DNA of 64,000 nucleotides from Schmidtea polychroa (taxonomy: Eukaryota): positions 94,736,001 to 94,800,000 of the forward strand of contig CM097885.1 in NCBI GenBank assembly GCA_044892525.1, written 5' to 3'. Shown in pieces: positions 11,677 to 64,000 of this stretch (position 1 is its first letter; every line of letters begins with the position of its first letter). The notes beneath the pieces are model-generated. The model saw nothing but the letters and a program-made list of their open reading frames with translations, did no database searches and had not been told where the DNA came from. A program made the translations under genes and the position numbers.

Positions 11677-11993
11677 TGTGAGGAGTTAAAATTAAAATAC
11701 TAAATTAAATTAGTTCATGATTAAAATTTGTAAAGTTTTAATTGAAACTTAAATTATTTTAAGATATTAAAATTGAAATGATAATTGAAATTTTAAAATA
11801 AAATAATTTTTAATAAAATTGAAATTCAAGTATGAATGCGATGGTATGTTGATATTTGGTTGAAATTAAAATTTAGAAAATGTCCTAAGAATATTTGTTT
11901 ATATAATCAGATTTAATGAAATATAATTTTGGATTTAATAGTCTTAGTAATTTATTTTGATGACAGAAGAATTAAATGTTATAGCTTCTAACA
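11677..11993 (+). repeat. 5' LTR (TG...CA)
   Basis: TGTGAGGAG...CTTCTAACA; matches 16420-16736 except one T/C. Confidence 0.97.
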
Positions 11994-13078
11994 TGGCGAC
12001 CATTCCAACGGATCTGCTTATTGGAAGATTACTTCCAGAAAAATTCCACAGAGGAGATGACCTCGAATTATTTATCAAAGAATGTCAGAGGTTCTTTGAA
12101 ATAACGAAGACACCAGTGAAGACCCAAATGGTACTAGTTATTACACTTCTGGACAGGACTTTGATTGAAGAATATGAAACCGCAGAAGGCAAAACCGTTG
12201 AACAGAAATTAAGAGCAGCTTTTCATCGACCAACGTCATTGATTGATGAATTAAGAGAAGCCTTGAACTACGAGCAAGGTAACGAATCAGCGGAAATATT
12301 TATAGAGAAAATATCAAAAATGACTAAAAAATTGGCCTCACACACTTGGAATGAGGAAGAAATTCAGAAATGTTTATTGACACATTGTGTAAAAGATAAA
12401 GAAGTCAGGAAAGAAATCGAAATGAAAGATCTCAAAACGGCGGAACAAATTAAAGAAACTATAAAGAAGATAGAAAAAGTTAACAAGGTTATTGAACAAG
12501 TAAACACGGTGAGATCAATACGACCTGCAACTGGAGGAAGAACTTATAGAGATGTAGTACAAGTTGGAGCCACGAAGAGAAAAATCAACGAATGGGAACC
12601 AGAGACAAGAATTAAAGTGATAGAATGCTGGACGTGTCAAAAACCGGGACACAGTAGCAGAGAATGTAATATAAAAAGAAGATTTCAATGTTATGCATGT
12701 GGTGTTGAAGGTCACATACGAAGAGAATGTCCAACAATCAAATGTCATAGATGCAATGCACGAGGACACAAAGAAAGAGAGTGCTACACAAATATGGAAA
12801 GACGAAATCAAGGAAGAGATCGAGACCAAAGGAAGATGTCAGGAGGAAGAGTTCAAAGAAATACCTATCAACAAAGGGAAGATATGTATCAATCAAGGAA
12901 CGTACATCAAAGACAATGGGGAAACCAACAATATAACAGAAAAGATATTGCAGCTATCGAGTCTGATGATGAGATGATGAATACAAAACAGTCAAGCCAG
13001 CCAGACGAGTATAACAGGGAGAATGACCCAAACGAGCACGCTCCGTCAAACGGGACATTGATCGGAGCAATTTACTAA
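11993..13078 (+). CDS. gag: Gag with three CCHC zinc knuckles
   Basis: CWTCQKPGHSSREC, CYACGVEGHIRREC, CHRCNARGHKEREC. The first ATG after the LTR is at 11993. Confidence 0.9.
   Translation: MATIPTDLLIGRLLPEKFHRGDDLELFIKECQRFFEITKTPVKTQMVLVITLLDRTLIEEYETAEGKTVEQKLRAAFHRPTSLIDELREALNYEQGNESAEIFIEKISKMTKKLASHTWNEEEIQKCLLTHCVKDKEVRKEIEMKDLKTAEQIKETIKKIEKVNKVIEQVNTVRSIRPATGGRTYRDVVQVGATKRKINEWEPETRIKVIECWTCQKPGHSSRECNIKRRFQCYACGVEGHIRRECPTIKCHRCNARGHKERECYTNMERRNQGRDRDQRKMSGGRVQRNTYQQREDMYQSRNVHQRQWGNQQYNRKDIAAIESDDEMMNTKQSSQPDEYNRENDPNEHAPSNGTLIGAIY
11994..12002 (+). promoter_or_regulatory. Primer-binding site
   Basis: TGGCGACCA immediately after the LTR CA, complementary to a tRNA 3' end (Arg-UCG-like by recall; not verified). 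Confidence 0.75.
13027..13068 (+). promoter_or_regulatory. -1 programmed ribosomal frameshift signal
   Basis: C_CCA_AAC slippery heptamer in gag frame (13027-33), 6-nt spacer, stem GCTCCG-TCAA / TTGA-(T)-CGGAGC. The pol frame (-1) is open exactly from 13027. Confidence 0.75.
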
Positions 13079-16000
13079 GTAAGATTGATTTCAACCAAAG
13101 AATGAATGCTAACGGTATGTGTAATTTAAGTGTGTATGATGATTGTATGATTGATAAAGATTGTAGTGTTTTTGAACGTGATATTAATAATAATAGTAGT
13201 GTAGAAATCAAAAAGTCGAATGATAAGGAAAGTCAGAAAAAATTTAAAGAGGAGTGTAAAGCAAATGAATTAGTAAAACACGAGGAAAGAACTATAGAGA
13301 AAATTTACAAATTCCTCAAGAAAAATGGAGACGTGTGTATTAATGAAATTGTAGAAGATACTAGAGAGCAGAATATTTTGTCAGTAGAAGAACAAAAAAG
13401 TCCAGTAATAACATATAATATAATGCAAGGTAGACCGAGTACAACACTGGATATCCAAGGGCGGAAAGTAGATTGTTTATTGGATACAGTAGCGCGAATT
13501 AATGTGATGGCTAAATCTGTAATTGATAGATTAGAAAATATCGAAATATTAGAAACAAGGGAATCGCTAAGATGTGCAAACAACAGTAGATTAGAAACTA
13601 TGGGTAAAATAAACATCAATGTTAAAATGGGCAGTATTGAAAGAAATGTAACATTCATTATAGTAAAGAATTTAATACCAGAAATTATTGGAGGAGTAGA
13701 ACTACAAAGGTTATTTGGTATAGAATTGAAATGTATACTAGAAGAACATGAAAAACGTAGTGATTTCATTTGCGAAATAGAAGCTAGATTTGGGCGGATT
13801 ATAACAGATGAAGAAAGATTACGTCATGCCATCGACGTTTTAAAGGTTACCGGAAATAAGGGACTGTTAGAAATATTTCAGGCAAACAAGAATGTTTTTA
13901 TGGCAGATAAATGGGACATTGGGTGTACTAATCTGATAAAACATAAGATCATCACGAAAGGAGAGCCAATAATGATTAAACCGAGACCTCAGCCAATAAA
14001 TTTGGAAGACAAGATTGAGGAAGCAATAAAAAATCTAGAAAACAACGGAATAATTAGGAAGTGTAATTCACCGTGGAACACACCTTTAGTTTGTGTATGG
14101 AAGAAAGAGAAAAAAGACACCAGGCTTTGTCTAGACTTCAGACAATTAAACAAGATAACAGAAAGACAAGCATTTCCAATGCCAAATGTAGATGAAATTT
14201 TAGACATCCTACACGGATCCAGATATTTTAGCTCAATCGACTTGGGAAATGCTTATTACCAGGTGAAGTTAGATAAAGAATCTCAAGAGAAAACAGCATT
14301 CTCAACAAAAGACGGACAGTTCTGTTTTAACAGGATGCCGTTCGGTATTGCAGCGGCACCAGGAACATTTCAAGAATTAATGACGAAAGTATTGAAAGAT
14401 TTGTGGAAAGATGGAGTGATGGTATATTTAGACGACATCCTAATATTTACAAAGACAGAAGAAGACCATTATAACATATTTGGAAAAGTCCTAGGGAAGA
14501 TCGCAACAGCAGGATTAAGATTGAACCCCGAAAAATGTCAAATATTTAGAAAAGAAGTGAAGTTTCTGGGACACATAATAAATAAAGACGGCATACAAAC
14601 AGATAATACTAAGATAGAAGCAATACAATCATTTCAAAAGCCAAAATGTGTAAAGAATCTGAGGAGCTTTTTGGGTATCTGTAATTATTATCGACGGTTC
14701 ATAAAAGACTATGCAAAGAAGGCAAGAGCACTAGAAAGCATATGCGGAAAAAACAATGAGAAAATAAGATGGACAGAGATGTGTGAAAAGGCTTTCGGGG
14801 AAATGAAAGAAGCATTGATAACCGCCCCAGTATTGGTATTTCCAGATTTCAGAAAAGAATTTATATTAGACACAGACGCGAGTTTCGATACTATTGGAGC
14901 AGTTCTTTCGCAAAAGGATGAAAAAGGACATGAACATGTCATTGCATATGGTTCACATGCGATGAGCAGCCACGAAAAAGGATACTGCATTACCAGAAAA
15001 GAATTATTGGCAATATACTATTTTTGTAAACATTTCAACCATTACTTATATGGTAAGAGATTCGTACTGAGAACGGACCATAAAGCTATTACGTTTATGG
15101 TAACAACGAAGAAACCAATAACTGCTCAATTCCAGACGTGGATCAACTATTTAAGCAGCCTGGATATTAAAATGGAATACAGGAAAGGAACAAGCCATAC
15201 AAACGCGGATATGCTATCCAGGAAAACATGCGGAACATGTGTACAGTGTATGATGGAACACGAAGACCCAAAAACCGGCAAAATTAAAACCAGAATATTA
15301 ACAGTAACAGCAGAAGGCGGATATAACAAGTGGCAAAATGACAATATGGAGGTCCAAGAAATAAAGAATAAGTTAGAAAATAAAGATTGTAAGTTCATAA
15401 TGGAAAACAACACGGTACTAACTAAGCAAGGTAAAATATGGATACCGTCAGATAATAGACAGAGGATGATAAAAGAAGTACACGTATTGCTGTGCCATGC
15501 AGGTGCACAGAAAGTAACGAAATATATCCAGAATAACTGCGACATGGAAAATTTAGCAACGGAAGTAAAAAAGGTAATTGAGAACTGCGAAAGATGTCAG
15601 AAAATGAAAACGATAACAACCAAGACAAAGGAGGAAACTCAAACAATAAAGAGTACAGAACCATTCGAGAAGATATATATGGATATATGTGGGCCATTGA
15701 AAGAAACGTTCAACAAAAAGAAATATATTTGCGGAATCATTGACCACTATAGTAAATACATCTCATTAACGGCCATAAACAAGCAAGACGAAAAAACAAT
15801 TAGTGAGACGTTATTAAATAAATGGATATTAAAGTTTGGAGCTCCAAAAGAACTTCATGTAGATTGTGGGAAGAACTTTGAAGCAAGAAGTATAAAAGAA
15901 CTAGCAAAGGCAGCTGGCATTGAATTAATTTTCTCAAGCCCATATCACCATAACACGAATGGTATTATTGAAAGACAATTCAGAACAATCAGAGAGTATA

Positions 16001-16446
16001 TTAACGCGTCATTGAATGAAGGAGGTAGAAAAAACTGGGCTGATATAGTGCCAGAAATAGAATATACTTTAAATGCAACAGTTCAAAAAACAACGGGAGT
16101 AAGCCCAGCAGAGATTATATTTGGGAGGAAAATCGACAGAATGAAATGGTACTGGAATAAAGAAATAAATAGAGAAGATATGGAAAAGAGAATAGAGGAT
16201 GAAACACTAAAACCAAAAATAAGCAAAACAGTGAGAGATTTTGAAATGGAAGATTTGGTTTTGATCAAACAAGAAATTCGAAATAAAGACAATGCAAGGT
16301 GGGAAGGGCCGTACAAAGTGATAAAGAAAATACATGAACGGAGCTACTTACTTAAAGATCAAAATGGGAAGATGGTAGTCAGAAATGTTGAGAAGATCAA
16401 ACATTTTAAAAAAGGGGGATGTGAGGAGTTAAAATTAAAATACTAA
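13027..16446 (+). CDS. pol: Pol polyprotein (protease, RT, RNase H, integrase with GPY/F)
   Basis: LLDTVA (protease site variant), YLDD, TDAS RNase H, HVLLCH..CERC zinc finger, D-D-E core, WEGPY; stop lies inside the 3' LTR. Confidence 0.95.
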   Translation, partial: PKRARSVKRDIDRSNLLSKIDFNQRMNANGMCNLSVYDDCMIDKDCSVFERDINNNSSVEIKKSNDKESQKKFKEECKANELVKHEERTIEKIYKFLKKNGDVCINEIVEDTREQNILSVEEQKSPVITYNIMQGRPSTTLDIQGRKVDCLLDTVARINVMAKSVIDRLENIEILETRESLRCANNSRLETMGKININVKMGSIERNVTFIIVKNLIPEIIGGVELQRLFGIELKCILEEHEKRSDFICEIEARFGRIITDEERLRHAIDVLKVTGNKGLLEIFQANKNVFMADKWDIGCTNLIKHKIITKGEPIMIKPRPQPINLEDKIEEAIKNLENNGIIRKCNSPWNTPLVCVWKKEKKDTRLCLDFRQLNKITERQAFPMPNVDEILDILHGSRYFSSIDLGNAYYQVKLDKESQEKTAFSTKDGQFCFNRMPFGIAAAPGTFQELMTKVLKDLWKDGVMVYLDDILIFTKTEEDHYNIFGKVLGKIATAGLRLNPEKCQIFRKEVKFLGHIINKDGIQTDNTKIEAIQSFQKPKCVKNLRSFLGICNYYRRFIKDYAKKARALESICGKNNEKIRWTEMCEKAFGEMKEALITAPVLVFPDFRKEFILDTDASFDTIGAVLSQKDEKGHEHVIAYGSHAMSSHEKGYCITRKELLAIYYFCKHFNHYLYGKRFVLRTDHKAITFMVTTKKPITAQFQTWINYLSSLDIKMEYRKGTSHTNADMLSRKTCGTCVQCMMEHEDPKTGKIKTRILTVTAEGGYNKWQNDNMEVQEIKNKLENKDCKFIMENNTVLTKQGKIWIPSDNRQRMIKEVHVLLCHAGAQKVTKYIQNNCDMENLATEVKKVIENCERCQKMKTITTKTKEETQTIKSTEPFEKIYMDICGPLKETFNKKKYICGIIDHYSKYISLTAINKQDEKTISETLLNKWILKFGAPKELHVDCGKNFEARSIKELAKAAGIELIFSSPYHHNTNGIIERQFRTIREYINASLNEGGRKNWADIVPEIEYTLNATVQKTTGVSPAEIIFGRKIDRMKWYWNKEINREDMEKRIEDETLKPKISKTVRDFEMEDLVLIKQEIRNKDNARWEGPYKVIKKIHERSYLLKDQNGKMVVRNVEKIKHFKKGGCEELKLKY
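16408..16419 (+). promoter_or_regulatory. Polypurine tract
   Basis: AAAAAAGGGGGA directly before the 3' LTR TG. Confidence 0.85.
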
Positions 16447-16736
16447 ATTAAATTAGTTCATGATTAAAATTTGTAAAGTTTTAATTGAAACTTAAATTAT
16501 TTTAAGATATTAAAATTGAAATGATAATTGAAATTTTAAAATAAAATAATTTTTAATAAAATTGAAATTCAAGTATGAATGCGATGGTATGTTGATATTT
16601 GGTTGAAATTAAAATTTAGAAAATGTCCCAAGAATATTTGTTTATATAATCAGATTTAATGAAATATAATTTTGGATTTAATAGTCTTAGTAATTTATTT
16701 TGATGACAGAAGAATTAAATGTTATAGCTTCTAACA
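16420..16736 (+). repeat. 3' LTR
   Basis: Near-identical to the 5' LTR. Confidence 0.97.
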
Positions 16737-17473: not shown

Positions 17474-18408
17474 TGTTGGGTTATATAGTTGGTGACAATA
17501 TTTGTAAATTCAAACCTTTAATCTGGCTCCAAAGCGTGTTTATTAATTCGCAATTCAACACTCTCGAACACAATAAGCTTTATTAATATCCACACGTAAT
17601 AGTACAAATTTCAATTACAACCAATTGACTATAAACCAATTTACCACACAGAGCTTATTTCGACACTACGTGAAGAATAGCCCTTTCTGTAACCACAACA
17701 ATAATCACTAGCCGTCAACTACTCAATTACAGAATATATTGATCGATTTTTCTATTTGCTTTGACCACACAACTTATTTACTCCACTTTTACTTTATATT
17801 CAATTTTATAAAAGATTCTTGTCACTTCTCTTTTCACTCTGCTTTGATTCCTCTTTTTACTCTGTCGTCTCTAATTTCACTCCACTTTTGCCTCTAAATC
17901 TGTTCCCAATCTGTTCTCAATCTGTTCTCAATCTGTTCCCAATCTGTTCTGATTTCTCGTCCACCAGTTTTCTTTATATAGTTGTTTTGCTTGTGGCACT
18001 CCAGATAATTGAGTGTTTTTCCACTTTCCATCTCCTGCTTTCCCCGACTGTCCCATTTTTATCTGTGACAGCTGTCAAGTTATTTTCCCCTTTTTCCTTT
18101 CTTGTTCGACCGCCTTCTCCCATCCATTCTATTATCACCGGCAAGCTGTCGAGATAAGGATATTGTTGTTTTCCTTTTTCCCTGATTTCAAAATTCCTTT
18201 TCCTTTTTGTACTAATTAATTTGTTCTGACCTTGATTTTTATTTTCCTGTTTGATAACTTTTATTTCCTTTCTCTTTCTCATTTTTGATTTCTTTTCACT
18301 TCCGTTTTCTTTTCTGAGTTTCTATAGATCGTCCCGTTTGTCATGGTGATCTTCCCCCAGGTAATTTTATTTATTTCTTTATGAATTATTATTTAGGTAT
18401 CCTCAACA
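17474..18408 (-). mobile_element. Solo LTR (TGTTGAGG...CCCAACA family)
   Basis: Plus strand TGTTGGG...CCTCAACA; 4-bp TSD AAAT on both sides; homologous to 51700-52228. Confidence 0.85.
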
Positions 18409-38400: not shown

Positions 38401-39453
38401 TATAGTTGTGGGGGTAGGAAAAGTTGTCTATGTGTAATGGAAAATAAATAAGAGATATCTCAAATATATATATATTAATATACATTTATTGACTATAGTT
38501 GGTTAGATACAACAAAAATGACAAAGTTGACCAATATTCATAAATTAGTAAATGTTAGCAAATGTTACATTTAAAAATATTACCCTAATTATCCATGAAT
38601 TCCTGATGAAGATATATTACGCAAATGATCATCTATTTCTCACTAACTTACATATATGACCATGTTTTTGCTGATTAATATACATAAGTGGTCTAATTTG
38701 TTAAATGATATCCAAATCGTCATGTATTTATTGGAACTATGAATTCGTTAAATTTTATCTCAATTAGTCATACATTGTAACAAAGATATCAAAATTTGAC
38801 TAAATTTTACTTCAAATGATAAAACATTTCTACCAAAATTTCATAAATTACCAATGAAATGTTCTATTAAAATGAGTATGTATTTCTCACGAAGTTGTAT
38901 AAATTTATCAATGAATTTGTTAACCCTACACTGCATGACTTTTTATATTTTATATTTTTACACTTTCACTTAAACTGTAAGACGTTTTAAAAATTGATTT
39001 GGTAATACAAAACTATTGAGAATTAAATTACGGTTTTTGTGTATTATATTGCAAATATAGCCAATACAAAGTAATATGAGAGAACATTTACCGAGAACAA
39101 GAGCGAGACAGTTTTTATTTTAATAAGATAATTGTGTATCACCAGTGATACAATATGCAGTGTAGGATTAAATATTGTCTGACAATGTCCATATTTTACT
39201 TGAATGATATGTGCTTTATAAAATGACCATGTATTTTCTCTAAATGGCTTAAGAATTTCTATATGCTTTTCAAATGATCATGTTTTTATTGATTAGAAAA
39301 ATTAAAATCTAATAATTGAAATAAAAGAAGTAGATATTTATTAAAAAATCATTTTAGATATAAAAACTATAAGTAAATTTTGATTGGTCAAATATAAATA
39401 AATTCAAAATTATTATATTTTTCATCAAAATTAAAGGAAAGTAAATAATTAAA

Positions 39454-40380
39454 ATGTCAATTTTGTCCATAGACGATCAAATAATTTTAAAAAGCTTTCA
39501 AACGGCACTTTTAGGAATTGGTTTCATTTTTAATTCATGGAGCGCTATTATTATGATCAAATATAAGATTTTCTTGTCTACATTCACAAGGATAGTTCTT
39601 CTGAATCAATTTTTGTTTGATACTCTCATTTGTTTACTAACAATCTTTATGTTGTGGATAGTGAAGGATGATTTTGATGAAAATTATGGGCTAGACCGAC
39701 TGATATGCATAGCATGGTCATCGCAAACCTTATATTGGATGTGCGCAACCCTTAGCAATCAAACTCTGGTCTGGACAACATTTGACCGATATCTCGCTGT
39801 CATTTATCCGACTTTTTATAAATTTAAAAAAAAACTATTACTTACTTTTTATTTATTATCAAGTTGTTTGATAAGTTTGTCATTTGGTCTGGAGATTGGA
39901 CTGCTCTCAACCATTAGAAACGGTTCATGCGTCTGGACCCCAACATCAGAAAGTTCATTATTCCGATTGTCATCACTCAGCTATTCGATAATGAATTATT
40001 TTCTTCCAGTTTTTTTATTTATATTTTGTTATTTTCGTGTGATAGTGAAAATGAAAAATCTGAAAAATAAAGACAAGACTGATGGAAGTTTAAAACGATC
40101 AACCATCACATTCACAATTGCGTGTTTCATTAACGTCATTTTATATATTATTTTATTACTAATGGACAACATTATATTTATATTGAGGAGCTTTGATTTG
40201 TTCACCTTTGATGCTGGGTCAGATATTCAGATGATCTCCCTATTTCTGGTCAGCATCAATAGCTGCATCAACCCGTTCATTTATCTTACCGTAATGAGGA
40301 ATTTTAGAAAATATTTTTTTCTCATTAACCTGATAAGCAATCTGAGCAAAGTTGGACCCTCTCGCAGCGTCATAAACTAG
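39454..40380 (+). CDS. Intronless rhodopsin-family (class A) GPCR, 308 aa
   Basis: Seven hydrophobic segments, DRY (TFDRYLAVIYP), TM7 NSCINPFIY, Cys at the top of TM3 (LICIAW) and in ECL2 (GSCVW); ATG to stop intact. Confidence 0.88.
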   Translation: MSILSIDDQIILKSFQTALLGIGFIFNSWSAIIMIKYKIFLSTFTRIVLLNQFLFDTLICLLTIFMLWIVKDDFDENYGLDRLICIAWSSQTLYWMCATLSNQTLVWTTFDRYLAVIYPTFYKFKKKLLLTFYLLSSCLISLSFGLEIGLLSTIRNGSCVWTPTSESSLFRLSSLSYSIMNYFLPVFLFIFCYFRVIVKMKNLKNKDKTDGSLKRSTITFTIACFINVILYIILLLMDNIIFILRSFDLFTFDAGSDIQMISLFLVSINSCINPFIYLTVMRNFRKYFFLINLISNLSKVGPSRSVIN

Positions 40381-40692: not shown

Positions 40693-42400
40693 CCTCCTGC
40701 CGAGGAAAAAAATTATTAGGCTATTTTTTTTTGCTTAATATTTTTATGTAGGTCAACTCAAAAGTTTACGATTTTCAAGGTTTTCTAAATACATTTTTCA
40801 TAGTTTTTATGTAGGTTAACTTAAAAATTGTGCCCCCTACAGGATAGTCTATATATAGTTATTAAATATGTAGGTCATATAGATTTAATTATAAAAAGGT
40901 TGGTCATATAAATATAATTATTTATTAAGTAGGTTACAGACACTGACAAATACACTTCATATAGTTTTTAAATATGTAGTTCATATAGATATAATAATAA
41001 ATAAGTTAGTCATACATATACTATTTAGTTTCAATAATTATTTTAACTGTGTGAGAATAAAATATTTCAATGATTTATTAAAATAGTTTTAAATGATAAA
41101 TAATTGGCTATTTAAAATTACTTTTATAAACATTTTTAAATTGAAATTTTTAAATTAAAAAATTAGACAAGCTTTTATTAGTAAATCATTTTTAAATCAT
41201 TTTTAAATAAATATATTTTAAATATCGAAATTTTAATAAATGGTTTTTGAAATATTTTATTCAACGTTGAAAATTTGTTAATATTTGTTAAATTTGCTAA
41301 TATATAGTATGTGTATATGACCTACTTAATTATTGTTAGGGTTCAACAGGAGAGGCACAAAAAATGAGGTAAAAAATCAATAAAAACACCAAATTCACAG
41401 TCAAAACTTAAAGTACAAAATATTAATTAAAAAATCAAAAAAATTTAAAAAATGAATATTTCCGGGGGAAACTGGTATGGGCGGATGCTTAATAATGAGA
41501 CGAGTTCAACTATGATAAAATAAAATCAATTTATCCCTAGAAGGAATAAATTACAAAAAACAAAAATTAATTAAAAATTAATTAACTAATGGAGAACCCG
41601 AGCTAATGGGAAACCCGAGCGATTTGAGAGAATCTGAATTACCCATCAAATTAGGAAAGGCAATTAAATTAGCCGAATAAAATGAAATTTAAGCGAGCCG
41701 TCAAAGAAAAAAGGGCAATTTCCTTAAAGCGAATTAGAGCTACAAGAGGAAGCCCGGGAGGAAGTTAGATCCAGACTAATTTGTCAAAGTAAAATCAATT
41801 ACAAATTGGGTAGAAAAGCGACCGGCAAGAAAACAGAATTGCCAGTTGGTCGAAGAAAAAGAAAACAAGAAGTTCATTGAGAGCGATCGGAAAACGTTAA
41901 AGTTAGCAATTAAATAATTTAAATCGAACGTACCAGAAAGGGACATCTCCCGTTGGAAGATTTCTCCCTGCGTGAGATTGATAGTCTATTGAAAAGTGCA
42001 GACCAAAAGGGTTGAATCAAGTGTGGTTGAATTAATAAAAAGTGTAACTAAAGTGTAACTATATCGGTCTTAAATAAAGATTTTGTGTTGGGTCGTTTAT
42101 TTATTTTGAAATGAACACAAAGGAGTCAGACAGTAATACCGACTTACACAAAATACCCAACATTATTATTAAATATATATAACTTACTTATTTAATAACT
42201 ATATATAGACTGTCCTGAAGGAGACACAAGTTTTTAGGAGGATGTGTGTCTGTGTGACTTACATTATGTTTGACTTTACCTACATAAAAACTGTGAAAAA
42301 ATTTCGTTATAAAGCCTTTAAAATGGTAAAAAAATTTTAATTTTTGAGTTGACCTACATAAATTTTTTTTAGCCTAATACATTTTTTCCTCAGCAGGAGG
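40693..42400. mobile_element. Foldback/MITE with long imperfect TIRs, interrupted by a solo LTR
   Basis: CCTCCTGC(C/T)GAGGAAAAAA..TATTAGGCTA..TTTATGTAGGTCAACTCAAAA mirrored at 42340-42400; further mirrored blocks at 40850 and 42195. Confidence 0.75.
41334..42162 (+). mobile_element. Solo LTR (829 bp)
   Basis: TGTTAGGG...CCCAACA; 4-bp TSD TTAT; AACCCGAG module. Confidence 0.88.
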
Positions 42401-45280: not shown

Positions 45281-46265
45281 TGTTGGGTTTTATGATATCA
45301 AAAATCGATAATCGCCGTTGGTTACTCTGACTCCACGTGTTCCAAAAATTAATAAACACAACTCCCAACGTACATTTGTTTTATAGGAAATTTACAATTC
45401 TCAATAAATAACGACACTTTTAGTTAACCACAATTTTCTCACAATTACCGATCGAACTCCGCTCTGGGAGGTCTCAACCTTGTACTATTAAAAATAAGTT
45501 TCATCTTTTTGCTTGATTCCGCTCTCTGAGTCGAACTCTTTTAATATTCCTTTTCGACTTCTCGATTCCTCTTATAATTCTTTTCTTCTTTTATTTTATT
45601 CCTCGAAATTCTATCGTCTGTTTCTTCTTCCCTACCTAAGACTACCGATGATTATTCTGAGTTTCCTTTTATACTCCCATAATCATTGTAATTGCCCCAT
45701 TTTCGACCTAATTGGTTTTGACTTCTTTAGTTATCATTCCCTAATTAGCTTTTTCTGTTGACCCTCTTCGTAATTCCCCTTTTTTTGTTTACCCTCGTTT
45801 ATCCGATTGTTTGGATAATTGCCGTCTGAATTCCTGTTTGCTTACCTTTACAAACTGCCGTGCTCGGGTTTTCTTCATCCCTCGGGTTCTCCAATGTCTC
45901 GGGCTTCTCATTAGCTCGGGTTTCCCATTAGCCAATTAATTAATTAATTTTACGTTTTTTTCATATTTGTCTGTTTTACGACCTTTTCTAAACATTTTCT
46001 AATAATTTCCTGCTCACTGTCTTCTTCACCATCCCCTAATCTACCCCTCTCCCGTTTTCCAGCTTCAATTTCGATAACTTTTCACTTTATTCCACTTCCT
46101 CAGATTTGCGCATTTTTCCATTTCGTGTCTGATTGTACCCATTTATAGTTCTGTTTTTATCATATCTTTCTTTGCCATTGCTTCTCTGCATGACCGTCAT
46201 TCAATTTCGGTTTTCCTTTTTATCTGAACTATATACTTTAATAATTTGCTTTTAAAACCTCAACA
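45281..46265 (-). mobile_element. Solo LTR (985 bp), close relative of 61452-62428
   Basis: TGTTGGG...CCTCAACA; 4-bp TSD AATT; collinear reverse-complement homology to 61452-62428. Confidence 0.92.
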
Positions 46266-47872: not shown

Positions 47873-48913
47873 TGTTGAGGTCCGTAAATTAAAATAAATT
47901 TAAATGAAATTTAGGTTAATAATTTAAATAAAAAGAAAGTGAAGAAAAAGACAAATAAAAGCGGGATCATGCACAGAATTAATAGTAAAGAAAAGTGTGA
48001 TGGAAGCAGAATTAGAAAATGCCAAAAGCAATTACGAAAGGCAAGAATCGGGAAATCCGAGAAAAATCAATAAATGGTAAAATCATCGAAATCGAATGGG
48101 GAAAACTGGTCAGGTATAGAGTAGCTAATGGTCAACAAGATGATGTTTAGGGATTTATCAGAAAATGGTTAGGAAGGGTCGAAAAGTATTCAAATGTATG
48201 AAAACAGAAAACGTTAATTAATTAATTAATTGGCTAATGGAAAACCCGAGCTAATGAGAAACCCGAGCCAATGGAGAACCCGAGAGGTGAAGGAAACCCG
48301 AGCTGGGTAAACAAGAAGAAAAGCAAACCGAAGGAAGATTTGGGCCCATTAGCTTGACACAATGAATAATTGGAAAAGAGCAAGGAGAAGATAGTGCGTG
48401 TAGAAAGACCGGAAGGGCCATAAATTATCTGGATTCGTTGGACCATTATGGGTGACAGCAGATACGTGGAAGCAAATGTCAAGTGAAAGATTGGCTCGGC
48501 AATAACCATTTGTCATCCCGATTTCGAGGAGTATATAAGGAAAGGGAAAATCAGAAAAAATCGGCATTTTGCCTCAGCTAGGGTTAGAAGAAACCGAGTT
48601 AGGAATAGGTAAAACGAATTAAGAAGATTAGGAAAAAGAAGATATAGAACAGGAATACGAAAAGGTGAAAAAGAATCAAATCAAACAGAAAAGAGGAAAA
48701 CGTGGGTCAAGAGAATCTAAAGAGACAAAAGGTGAATATTATCTATTTACAAAGCATCAACGCCGAGCGGAGAATCGGTCAAACGTAACTTTGATTATTA
48801 ACTGTAAAGTGGTGATAAAGAATTGTGAATTTGTTATTTCAATATACGTTGTTTTGATTTAAAGGACACGAGGAGTCAGAGGGAACCGACTTAAAGTAAT
48901 TTAAAACCCAACA
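47873..48913 (+). mobile_element. Solo LTR (1041 bp)
   Basis: TGTTGAGG...CCCAACA; 4-bp TSD ATTG; AACCCGAG x4 module; TATA-like GTATATAAGG near 48531. Confidence 0.9.
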
Positions 48914-51699: not shown

Positions 51700-52228
51700 T
51701 TTTCTCCAATAATTTTGTCTCTCAAACTGTCTCTCAAATCGTCTCACAAATTGTCTCCCACTTTTCCAAATTTTGTTCTCCTTTCGTATCCACCAGTTTT
51801 CCTTTATATTGTTATTTTGTTTATGGCACTGGCGACAGATTTTGTTTTCCCCTTTCCATTTTCTTCTGCGTTCCCTGCTATATCAGCCTTATCTCTGACA
51901 GATGTCGAGATATTTTTTCTTTTCCCTTTTTTATTTAATCGCCTGATCACAGTAATACTGTTATCACTGGAAAGCTAAGGATATTGTTATTTTCCTTTTC
52001 CCCCGATTTCAAAATTCCTTTTCCTTTTTGTACTAATTAATTAGTACTGACCTTGGTTTTTATTTTCATGTTTGATTCCTTTTGTTTCCTTCCTCTTCCT
52101 CATTTCTCATTTCTTTTTGCTTCCGCTTTCTTTTCTGAGTACCCATAGATCATCCCGTTTGTCATGACGATCTTCCCCCAGGTAATTTATTTATTTATTA
52201 TGTTATTTCCATTTAGGTATCCTCAACA
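51700..52228 (-). mobile_element. Partial LTR homologous to 17880-18408
   Basis: Shared blocks ccaccagtttt.., gatttcaaaattccttttcctttttgtactaattaat, cccgtttgtcatg..cttcccccaggtaattt, ending atttaggtatcctcaaca; other end not located. Confidence 0.75.
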
Positions 52229-61451: not shown

Positions 61452-62428
61452 TGTTGAGGTTTGAAAATAAATTATTAAATTATATAGTTCAGATTAAAAG
61501 GAAAGCCGAAATTGAATGGCGGTCAAGCAGAGAAGCAATGGCAAAGAAAGATATGATAAAAACAGAACTATAAAAGGGTACAATCAGACATGAAATGGGA
61601 AAATGCGCAAACCGGAGGAAGTGGAATAAAGTGAAAAGTTATCGAAATTGAAGCTGGAAAACGGGAGAGGGGTAGATTAAGGGATGGTGAAGAAGACAGT
61701 GAGCAAGAAATTGTTAGAAAATGTGTAGAAAGGGTCGTAAAACAGACAAATGTGGAAAAACGTAAAATATTAATTAATTAATTAATTGGCTAATGGGAAA
61801 CCCGAGCTAATGGGAAGCCCGAGTCAATGGAGAACCCGAGCGATGAAGAAAACCCGAGCACGGCAATTTGGAAGGGTAAACAAACGAGGAATTCAGAGGG
61901 CAATTATCCAAACAATCGGATAAACGAGGGTTAACAAAAGACAGGGAATTACGAAGAGGGTCAACAAAAATAGTCAATTAGGGAATGATAGCTGAAGAAG
62001 TCAAAACCAATTAGGTCAAAAATGGGGCAATTACAACGATTATGGGAGTATATAAGGAAACTCAAAATTCACATAATCGGCGATAGCCTTAGGTAGGGAT
62101 ACGAAGAAACAGACGATAGGAGTTCGAGGAATAAAAATAAAAAGGAAAAAGGAATTATAAGAGGAATTTAGGAATCAGAAAGGAATATTAAAAGAGTTCG
62201 GATCAGAGAGCGGAATCAAACAAAAGGTGAAACCTATTTTTTAAATCGTACAAGGCCGAGACCTTCCAGAGCGGAGTTCGATCTGAAATTGTGTAAGAAT
62301 TGTGATTAACCAATAGTGTGATTAATTGTTGAGTTGTGAATTGTTATAAAACAAATATACGTTGGGAGTTTTTGTTTATTGATTTTGGAACACGTGTAGT
62401 CAGAGTAACCAACGGTTGATTTTGATAT
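61452..62428 (+). mobile_element. LTR lacking its final 14 nt, abutting an inverted 36-nt LTR end
   Basis: TGTTGAGG start, AACCCGAG x4 module, TATA-like GTATATAAGG (~62048); collinear with 45281-46265. Confidence 0.88.
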
Positions 62429-62437
62429 TGTTGGGTT

Positions 62438-64000
62438 TTATGATATCAAAATCAACCGTTGGTTAAATGATTCTTTTATTAGTTGATAATTTTTCCATGT
62501 ATCGGCTTGATTCCGTTCCTCCTCGTATGACGGTGCCGATTCCCCGATGTTCTCGTTGTCACTTTTGTCCTCATTAGAAGTAGTGGTTACATCAATATAA
62601 CTTACCTTTCTCTTTTTCGTTAATCGTGCTTTCAACGTTTCCAACTCTCGATATTGATGATGTGTTATAAAAAATCTGGCTAACAATGGTATACATCCAA
62701 TAACCAACTTCCACGACAGACCTGTAATAGTGTATAATCTGTGTGTTGATAACACCTGCGAAACTATTACTTTAATCATGATTCCAATCACATATATTCC
62801 GATTAATCCCGCGCAGGCTTGCCCGATAAACATAAATTTTCCCCAAATCTTTTTCATCGTATTATACGTCGCCTTTTTGTAATGATCCACTGTTAATAAA
62901 TAGTCGTAATTCACTTTTCCAGTTCCACTCGGGAGAATAGTGTCTACTATTTCCGTTATTACCCTTTCCTTTTTCGAGGGGAATAATAAGTTTCTGCGTG
63001 CTGCTTCAATATCATCACTTGAATCCATTCCACTTTGAGTCATGCTGTCTAGCGATGTAAAGTTAATTAGATATTCTAATTTTGTCAACTCCAATTTTTC
63101 TGGGACTTTCACCCCTCTATGATCAGGTAGTGCAATCCATGATTCGGGCGTCAGGCGGTATAGTGGAGCCAATAATCTGTTGCACTGCAACACTCTCGGT
63201 TTCGCGTCCTCCTCCAATAAAATTTGTGTCACCGGCTCCATGAATCGTAGCTTCCCATTAACATTCACAGGCAGTTCATTTGTGCATTGATTGTATTTCA
63301 TCAATTTAATAGGTACTGCCTTGCATTTATAACCATATAAGGCTTCACCAAGCATTCGAGCGAATACTCCATTCTCCGAAATCAACATTGGAGCAACTAG
63401 ATTCGGGTTCGTGATAGCCATCACCATTCTGTTTCGCAGGATTTCTTTGTTTAACTTGCAATCATTTAGTATGATTTCCCTGTACACATTTTCAATTGTA
63501 TCTTGGCTAAAATGAAATAAATAGTCAATCTTATTATTGAAATAGTTCGTTAGTTTAATTTCCTCTGCGTACAATTTTGTTTGAGCTTCTTCGACAACTT
63601 TCTTGGATAAATAAATTCCTTTATAATTGGTCTCATAAACAGTTTGTCCACACTTCGTATTTACGCTCTTCCTTAAGAATCTCATCCCATCGTTTGGGGA
63701 CATTGCCATTAAAACCGTTGGCGTTTTCTTCAAGCGTATCGGTGTGATTCTAAGTGTCATATTCATGACTGAGTTTAGCACTGTGCTTTCTGGTCTCTCT
63801 TGGATCTGCTCTCCCGTTATCTCTTTAAAAGGCATTGATTTTAAATGTGCTAAATTGCATTTTTTGGTATCAACTTCATATACCAGAATTGACTCACCTG
63901 TGTTGCAGCTTTTCTCCCTCATGTTACAAAATGGATGGGTTTGCAATTTTCCCGTATCGTCATCGAATGATCCATCAAAATACCTTAATTCGGTTTCATA
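62438..64000 (-). CDS. Class III viral fusion glycoprotein-like ORF (chuvirus G / herpes gB-like env), 5' end beyond the window
   Basis: Open from 64000 (YETELRYFDGSFDDDTGKLQTHPFC..) to the stop at 62438. Motifs CGQTVYETNY, YFNNKIDYL..DC, G.FARMLGEALYGYKCKAV, CTNELPV..FMEPVTQIL..C..LLAP.Y; C-terminal TM segment and basic tail. Confidence 0.75.
   Translation of the reverse strand, partial: YETELRYFDGSFDDDTGKLQTHPFCNMREKSCNTGESILVYEVDTKKCNLAHLKSMPFKEITGEQIQERPESTVLNSVMNMTLRITPIRLKKTPTVLMAMSPNDGMRFLRKSVNTKCGQTVYETNYKGIYLSKKVVEEAQTKLYAEEIKLTNYFNNKIDYLFHFSQDTIENVYREIILNDCKLNKEILRNRMVMAITNPNLVAPMLISENGVFARMLGEALYGYKCKAVPIKLMKYNQCTNELPVNVNGKLRFMEPVTQILLEEDAKPRVLQCNRLLAPLYRLTPESWIALPDHRGVKVPEKLELTKLEYLINFTSLDSMTQSGMDSSDDIEAARRNLLFPSKKERVITEIVDTILPSGTGKVNYDYLLTVDHYKKATYNTMKKIWGKFMFIGQACAGLIGIYVIGIMIKVIVSQVLSTHRLYTITGLSWKLVIGCIPLLARFFITHHQYRELETLKARLTKKRKVSYIDVTTTSNEDKSDNENIGESAPSYEEERNQADTWKNYQLIKESFNQRLILIS

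Follow-up and report, generated by a model that had tools for sequence, protein, structure and literature searches.

A probable young, internally deleted copy of a compact Burro-like Ty3/gypsy element with a predicted chuvirus/gB-type envelope gene

Introduction

The closest described counterparts of the element reported here are LTR retroelements of planarians. Chary and Hayashi (eLife 2026; PMC13524379) present Smed_errantivirus_1-6 as planarian 'ancient errantiviruses' with the order GAG-ENV-POL and an ENV of the HSV/gB type. Burro (GYPSM1), as outlined by Arkhipova and Yushenova (2019; PMC6431247), comprises giant gypsy-like planarian elements in which one polyprotein carries, in order, gag with three CCHC motifs, Ubi/SUMO-like and BCL2-like domains, an in-frame env, PR, RT, RH and IN.

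The window analysed here is a 64-kb stretch of DNA (G000:C1:94736001-94800000) that contains 752 N in 4 stretches. A first-pass annotation of this window noted at its right-hand end an open reading frame for a chuvirus/gB-like fusion glycoprotein that abutted an LTR, and suggested that a gypsy-type element carried this frame as its envelope gene (env). The explanation favored here is that the frame very probably belongs to a compact (~16.5 kb) Burro-like Ty3/gypsy element, present in the window as a young copy with an internal deletion. The element encodes one polyprotein, and its complete copies are likely to form enveloped particles.

Results

The minus-strand frame occupies 520 codons (62441-64000), ends with a stop codon at 62438-62440 (minus strand), inside an LTR remnant, and is still open at the end of the window. 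Positions 62465-64000 (minus strand) hold the C-terminal part of env, including its anchor and cytoplasmic tail, and correspond to polyprotein residues 1187-1699. As annotated at first pass, the frame includes a transmembrane anchor, predicted by a hydropathy scan at 62744-62836 (minus strand) and followed by a basic tail. Pfam family PF24664 (Monjiviricetes_fusion) matched residues 91-484 of the window frame (62549-63730, minus strand) with an E value of 8.9e-61 and the complete env, which continues beyond the window, with an E value of 1.6e-87; the match of BDV_G to the window env had an E value of 0.01. A beetle PF24664 protein aligned with env over 567 columns, and PDB sequence searches with env returned no solved fusogen, the only matches being centrin noise. 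Judged from its sequence, env is of the chuvirus/gB type (PF24664), in agreement with the earlier proposal, and its putative placement in class III is based on the Pfam match, the alignment with the beetle protein and the published classification of close relatives.

Beyond position 64000, the frame extends to 1,721 codons, or 1,706 aa from the first ATG, and encodes gag with three CCHC knuckles, a cargo of ~600 residues composed of two ubiquitin-like (UBL) folds and a Bcl-2-like fold, an internal signal peptide and the whole of env, in that order. In locus L011, where positions equal window positions minus 62000 and all parts of the element are on the minus strand, the N-terminal part of env with its signal peptide was located at L011:2001-2528, the Bcl-2-like domain at L011:2568-2957, two helical plus ubiquitin-like repeats at L011:3324-4286 and gag at L011:4509-5558. 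Upstream of these lie a 19-nt primer binding site (PBS) with complementarity to the tRNA-Trp of the host plus CCA (L011:5719-5737) and a complete 5' LTR of 990 bp (L011:5745-6734). The extension past 64000 proposed at first pass as a search for pol and a 5' LTR yielded the latter, complete, but no pol, and the gene order expected at first pass is therefore not upheld. The length of this copy is 6,306 bp.

The last codons of the frame are read, as previously noted, from the end of an LTR. Positions 62429-62465 (minus strand, the strand of the frame) are the last 37 nt of the 3' LTR, which end in CA and encode the final codons; 36 of these nucleotides are unique and 1 base is common to both sides of the junction. 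At this junction, the env tail is joined to the final 37 nt of the 3' LTR with a 1-nt overlap, and ~10.2 kb of the element is absent. In all of at least 21 other copies with at least 99% identity, the boundary of the match was at 62465 (40 of 915 candidates scored). Env adjoins the LTR only because this copy is deleted. A 4-bp target site duplication (TSD), ATAT, at 62425-62428 (plus strand) has its twin after the 5' LTR at L011:6735-6738. The element sits reversed within a solo LTR of the same family (61452-62428, plus strand, opposite to the element) that has its own TSD, AATA, and 98.9% identity to the 5' LTR of the element; the insertion is 14 nt short of the end of this solo LTR. A leftover inverted repeat with a 23-bp stem, formed between the solo LTR and the 3'-LTR remnant, occupies 62406-62465 (z -8.7, 0/200 shuffles).

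The first-pass count of about six occurrences of the LTR in the window was borne out for six related full or partial LTRs, but only two of the six (99% and 88%) are of the exact family, the others being members of sister families or remoter relatives. Besides the solo LTR already described, these are a second member of this exact family, an older solo LTR (88%; 45281-46265, minus strand, TSD AATT), a solo LTR nearest to sister subfamily C (47873-48913, plus strand, TSD ATTG), a solo LTR of sister subfamily E (41334-42162, plus strand, 77% identical to the 5' LTR of that subfamily, TSD TTAT), a remoter solo LTR with the same terminal motifs (17474-18408, minus strand, TSD AAAT) and a partial relative (51713-52228). 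All four of the 4-bp TSDs previously listed were found. The impression that nearly all neighboring transposon frames are decayed was not upheld, as an unrelated gypsy element at 11677-16719 is intact, with gag (375 aa) and pol (1139 aa) both open between two 300-nt LTRs that do not differ from each other. The window also contains an uninterrupted frame of 311 aa for a rhodopsin-family GPCR (39445-40380; 7tm_1, E 1.6e-17). Elements of the clade were noted in (AAT)n tracts or inside other clade members at L015 (G000:C2:176.47 Mb), at L034 and at window positions 61452-62428.

The part of the element within the window matched at least 41 places in the genome, at least 22 of them with at least 99% identity (40 of 915 candidates scored). 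Each of the 12 other family-A copies that were fetched continues toward pol where the window copy breaks off; 9 of the 12 extend as far as integrase and the protein encoded after it, and one was open from end to end. Open copies encode a single frame of 3,314 aa in subfamily A and 3,331 aa in subfamily B. The order of Pfam domains in two full copies was gag, CCHC, PF24664, protease, RVT_1, RT_RNaseH, Integrase_H2C2 and rve. Full-length elements of the family do carry the frame, as had been anticipated, but between gag and pol, so the notion of env as a 3' gene after the integrase is rejected. Complete copies measure ~16.5 kb (15.5-16.7 kb in five of five measured) and have 990-bp LTRs with TG..CA ends, a polypurine tract (PPT) and an exact tRNA-Trp PBS. 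LTR pairs are 99.1-100% identical. Where both LTR ends were read, the 4-nt flanks match in every element (12 of 12), three of which, in microsatellites, are ambiguous. An ORF of ~80 aa, coiled-coil-like and similar in subfamilies A and B, was observed after the polyprotein (L016, ~170 nt past the stop, and L027). A tandem tRNA-Trp array with a 284-bp period was observed at L185 (G000:C4:55.02 Mb), the motif of which has 806 matches genome-wide.

The best solved relative of the RT-RH region was Ty3 (E 8.8e-81). The RT shares 51% identity with that of Burro and 40% with that of a plain gypsy, and 28% with the BEL/Pao RT of this genome along a short alignment; the Burro node was left open, with long branches, in an RT tree of 8 rows built without curated references. 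A BEL/Pao pol, which the first-pass annotation had named as evidence against its proposal, was looked for, and no BEL/Pao family was found among the 20 Pfam matches listed for two full copies; PF05380 had 78 matches elsewhere in the genome, yet none among these 20. The gypsy-type Pfam domains, the match to Ty3 and the 4-bp TSDs agree with the earlier preference for a gypsy rather than a BEL/Pao carrier, and the carrier is classified from its sequence as Ty3/gypsy (Metaviridae), not BEL/Pao. Sister family D (L131/L132, L133/L134) was seen to encode ~3,050 aa with an RT identity of 51% and the same layout, with one clear UBL, a shorter FN3-type protein and an extra downstream ORF of ~720 aa. The layout gag-UBL-Bcl2-env was also observed, whole or in part, in P0012, P0017, P0021, P0024 and P0005 from public collections; the clade therefore reaches beyond this genome.

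Folding of the cargo from a 12-row alignment gave two repeats, each of a four-helix unit and ubiquitin, and then an acidic linker, which is disordered, ahead of a helical bundle. The best match of the bundle was Trichoplax Bcl-2L2, with a Z score of 11.5, which is below the caution level of ~13 for helical bundles, and an rmsd of 3.4 over 130 aligned residues. The top 60 matches in a PDB profile search were all Bcl-2/Bcl-xL (best E 7e-5), and Pfam Bcl-2 was detected in 9 of 12 aligned members (best E 2.6e-6), the value for the window's own copy being only 0.24. BH2 is kept in the Bcl-2-like domain, and none of the 12 aligned members has the NWGR motif of BH1. From these sequence and model comparisons, the cargo is predicted to contain a Bcl-2 helical fold with a BH1-BH2 region; binding of BH3 is uncertain because the BH1 motif is degenerate, and an anti-apoptotic action of the predicted domain is plausible. 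The Bcl-2 of Burro1 is said to be anti-apoptotic, but such a report was not met in the literature searched and carries no weight here. The ubiquitin fold was detected by Pfam in 7 of 12 members and in the model with a Z score of 11.5 (rmsd 3.1, 77 aligned). A search did not support the four-helix repeat as a TFIIS N-terminal domain, and this domain is also absent from the matches listed for the cargo model, a list filled by other domains. Word-index protein searches, which are weak evidence, gave no match to the cargo region, compared with longer proteins, or to the post-integrase ectodomain. Multicopy Bcl-2 homologues were also observed at L143/L149 and L145, beside ORFs that resemble Polinton capsid, ATPase and polymerase; mobile elements of two or more classes thus carry Bcl-2 here.

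After the integrase, hydropathy indicated a second hydrophobic signal-like stretch, which was above threshold in subfamilies B and D and below it in A, followed by a beta-rich ectodomain and a strong transmembrane segment. Foldseek matched the ectodomain to fibronectin (E 6.6e-7), and the FN3 match of the model had a near-background Z score of 8.6-8.7 (rmsd 2.5, 77 aligned). This model is weak (mean pLDDT 62.5), with most of the first ~100 residues below 55 and residues 100-190 best supported, and a viral fold library returned generic FN3 matches only. The post-integrase membrane protein is predicted to hold FN3 domains. No description of such a protein was found in the literature searched, a search not aimed at FN3 alone; Grohme et al. 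2018 or Repbase may already cover these smaller families.

A non-autonomous family with the same LTRs (98-99%) and PBS was represented by L083:4848-8846, L085:4775-8743 and L091:4938-8906. Its ~1,320-aa frame combines gag with UBL and Bcl-2-like cargo and passes, by way of the env signal peptide, into a post-integrase membrane protein of reduced length; both env and pol are lacking. The junction so formed was covered over at least 750 of 801 nt by at least 31 of at least 42 matches (40 of 187 candidates scored). Compared with family A, the satellite cargo is only ~60% identical while the gag CA is 95% identical; the dN/dS of the cargo, 0.11-0.25, indicates purifying selection. The sequence of this satellite family suggests that it is likely a recombinant. 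An env- and pol-less satellite with the same LTRs is not described in the literature searched or in the main text of PMC13524379.

Comparison of subfamilies A and B gave dN/dS values of 0.03 for env, 0.02 for RT and 0.02 for IN, and of 0.11 for UBL, 0.23 for the Bcl-2-like domain and 0.13 for the post-integrase protein; the comparison of A with C was saturated and gave no ratio. The cysteine frame of env is preserved among family members. Strong selection on env between subfamilies therefore indicates that env is useful to the element during transposition. When this copy was compared with a sibling, dN/dS was 1.02 overall and 1.33 in env. Its private codon changes numbered 16 non-synonymous and 2 synonymous, 4 of them within the window part of env, and those of 11 compared siblings numbered 6-15 non-synonymous and 1-7 synonymous. 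This copy is young and drifting. Thus, the first-pass suggestion that the frame remains open through recent insertion or selection, for which a dN/dS comparison across copies had been proposed, stands in its first part and not in its second: the window frame owes its openness to the youth of the insertion and not to selection at this locus.

Discussion

The domain order of the family, the anatomy of its LTRs, PBS, PPT and TSDs, its youth and the purifying selection on every domain between subfamilies are established by the results above. As suggested by domain order and hydropathy, one mRNA would give rise to one chain of ~3,300 aa. Gag and cargo would remain cytosolic, the first internal signal peptide would thread env into the ER and the env anchor would bring the chain back to the cytosol for PR-RT-RH-IN, after which the second signal peptide would export the FN3-type ectodomain, held by its C-terminal anchor. 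The parts would be freed by signal peptidase and the protease of the element. Env would then act as the fusogen, the FN3 protein would likely be its partner in attachment or adhesion, and the Bcl-2 fold would likely dampen cell death or innate signalling.

A cell-to-cell role for the envelope is about as likely as the release of free particles. Indeed, we give little short of an even chance to the view that env is kept for a role within or between cells, such as soma-to-stem-cell or germline transfer or capsid assembly at membranes, with no free infectious particle passing between animals. A single frame fixes Gag:Env:Pol at 1:1:1 unless the transcript is spliced, and most retroviruses differ from such a fixed ratio; the abundant satellite family transposes without env in cis; and env has mostly co-diverged with pol and hosts, which fits vertical inheritance, according to PMC13524379. 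Set against a purely cell-internal role are an env dN/dS as low as that of RT, the retained cysteine frame and the conservation of the second surface protein as well.

With respect to the window copy itself, insertion at ATAT into a solo LTR of the same family, in head-to-head orientation, would have created a palindrome of ~960 bp, from which a later deletion would have taken most of one arm together with pol, leaving env beside 37 nt of LTR. The deletion probably resolved the palindrome, which may also have been its cause. As part of the same overall explanation, this copy in all likelihood lacks autonomous mobility and is undergoing neutral decay. The palindrome expected at this locus is also the kind of long inverted repeat at which the junction of env and LTR might have arisen as an assembly artefact, the true locus being a full element. 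Public contigs from runs X1 and X3 diverge from the window at 62465 and continue toward pol, and none of the matches listed from public contigs bridges the junction. This account is nonetheless quite unlikely, as the X1 and X3 contigs represent collapsed family sequence rather than this locus, the copy retains both of its TSDs intact, the 1-nt overlap makes for a clean junction and real truncations are present in other copies too. The public contigs support the family and its continuation toward pol.

That the host has domesticated a truncated gag-cargo-env copy would accord with 1,706 open codons beneath a complete 5' LTR, but is very improbable given a dN/dS of about 1, private changes at 16:2 with 4 in the window part of env, and ~99% identity of this copy to its siblings. 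Although PF24664 spans monjiviral glycoproteins and such endogenous viral elements are reported near gypsy fragments in arthropods (PMC10084718), the idea of a chuvirus insertion placed by chance beside an unrelated LTR, or of an Anakin-like BEL/Pao carrier, is scarcely credible, since many copies read gag, env and a gypsy pol in the same frame, RT is closer to Burro and plain gypsy than to BEL/Pao, no Peptidase_A17 or BEL-type pol is among the 20 Pfam matches listed and the TSDs are of 4 bp, not 5-6 bp.

A broader interpretation, which goes beyond the compact Burro-like element favored here and which we regard as rather unlikely, is that of a living flatworm retrovirus clade outside Retroviridae. 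Its members would have a coat of two glycoproteins cut from the polyprotein (a class III fusogen and a host-like FN3 attachment protein) and a vBcl-2, would be parasitised by LTR-sharing (98-99%) satellites that lack env and pol and keep Gag and Bcl-2 in frame, and might move between host species. The subfamily C env is ~98% identical to that of a published S. mediterranea element, which would signify transfer only if the present host is a different species.

Like Smed_errantivirus_1-6 as described in PMC13524379, the family reported here is multicopy and has a Ty3/gypsy pol and an env, of predicted gB type, between gag and pol. Env in this family is flanked by a signal peptide and transmembrane segment, and multiple near-identical copies are present (at least 22 of at least 41 with at least 99% identity). 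By eye, the 251-aa ENV fragment of Smed_errantivirus_2 given in that report differs from subfamily C (L135) at 4 of 251 positions, and subfamilies E and D look similar to Smed_errantivirus_1 and _3. Between the window env and that of subfamily C, identity is 78%, and subfamily A is a branch distinct from C (RT 89%). The terms Bcl, ubiquitin, fibronectin, polyprotein and accessory have no matches in the main text of PMC13524379, the table of which gives no tRNA primer for the Smed elements, in contrast with the exact tRNA-Trp PBS found here.

The Burro design of gag-UBL-BCL2-env-pol in one frame, as outlined in PMC6431247, is present in this family. The Burro copy of this genome has the same order, a homologous PF24664 env (env profile E 4.6e-104), a Bcl-2 profile match (E 4e-7) and a C-terminal segment resembling a signal peptide or transmembrane stretch. 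The family differs in size, with 16.5 kb, 3,314 aa and 1-kb LTRs as opposed to more than 30 kb and 4,873 aa in that account of Burro, and no match to the ankyrin, BIR or MATH cargo of Burro was found among the Pfam matches listed for it. Burro env was likened in PMC6431247 to gypsy Env and mononegaviral glycoproteins, while the env described here is matched by PF24664. Judged by these relatives, the host would be a planarian-type flatworm. The Anakin elements of mosquitoes (PMC7642597) carry the same kind of glycoprotein on an LTR element, but with a BEL/Pao pol, whereas the pol here is of gypsy type and env is in frame between gag and pol. Viral Bcl-2 mimics are matched by the cargo model (canarypox CNP058, Z 10.9; KSHV Bcl-2, Z 9.8); unlike these, the predicted domain lies inside a Gag polyprotein, ahead of the env signal peptide.

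That a gypsy element carries a gB/chuvirus-like env is thus true and already published, and the present work adds a Burro design that is small and very young and occurs in multiple subfamilies. This version should be easier than a 30-kb element for studying whether a gB-type errantivirus forms particles in its host, and offers an easier system for the role of a retroelement Bcl-2 fold in a stem-cell-rich animal. In its likely working, the family resembles a compact Burro; in classification, it joins the gB-type errantiviruses already published, as a new member.
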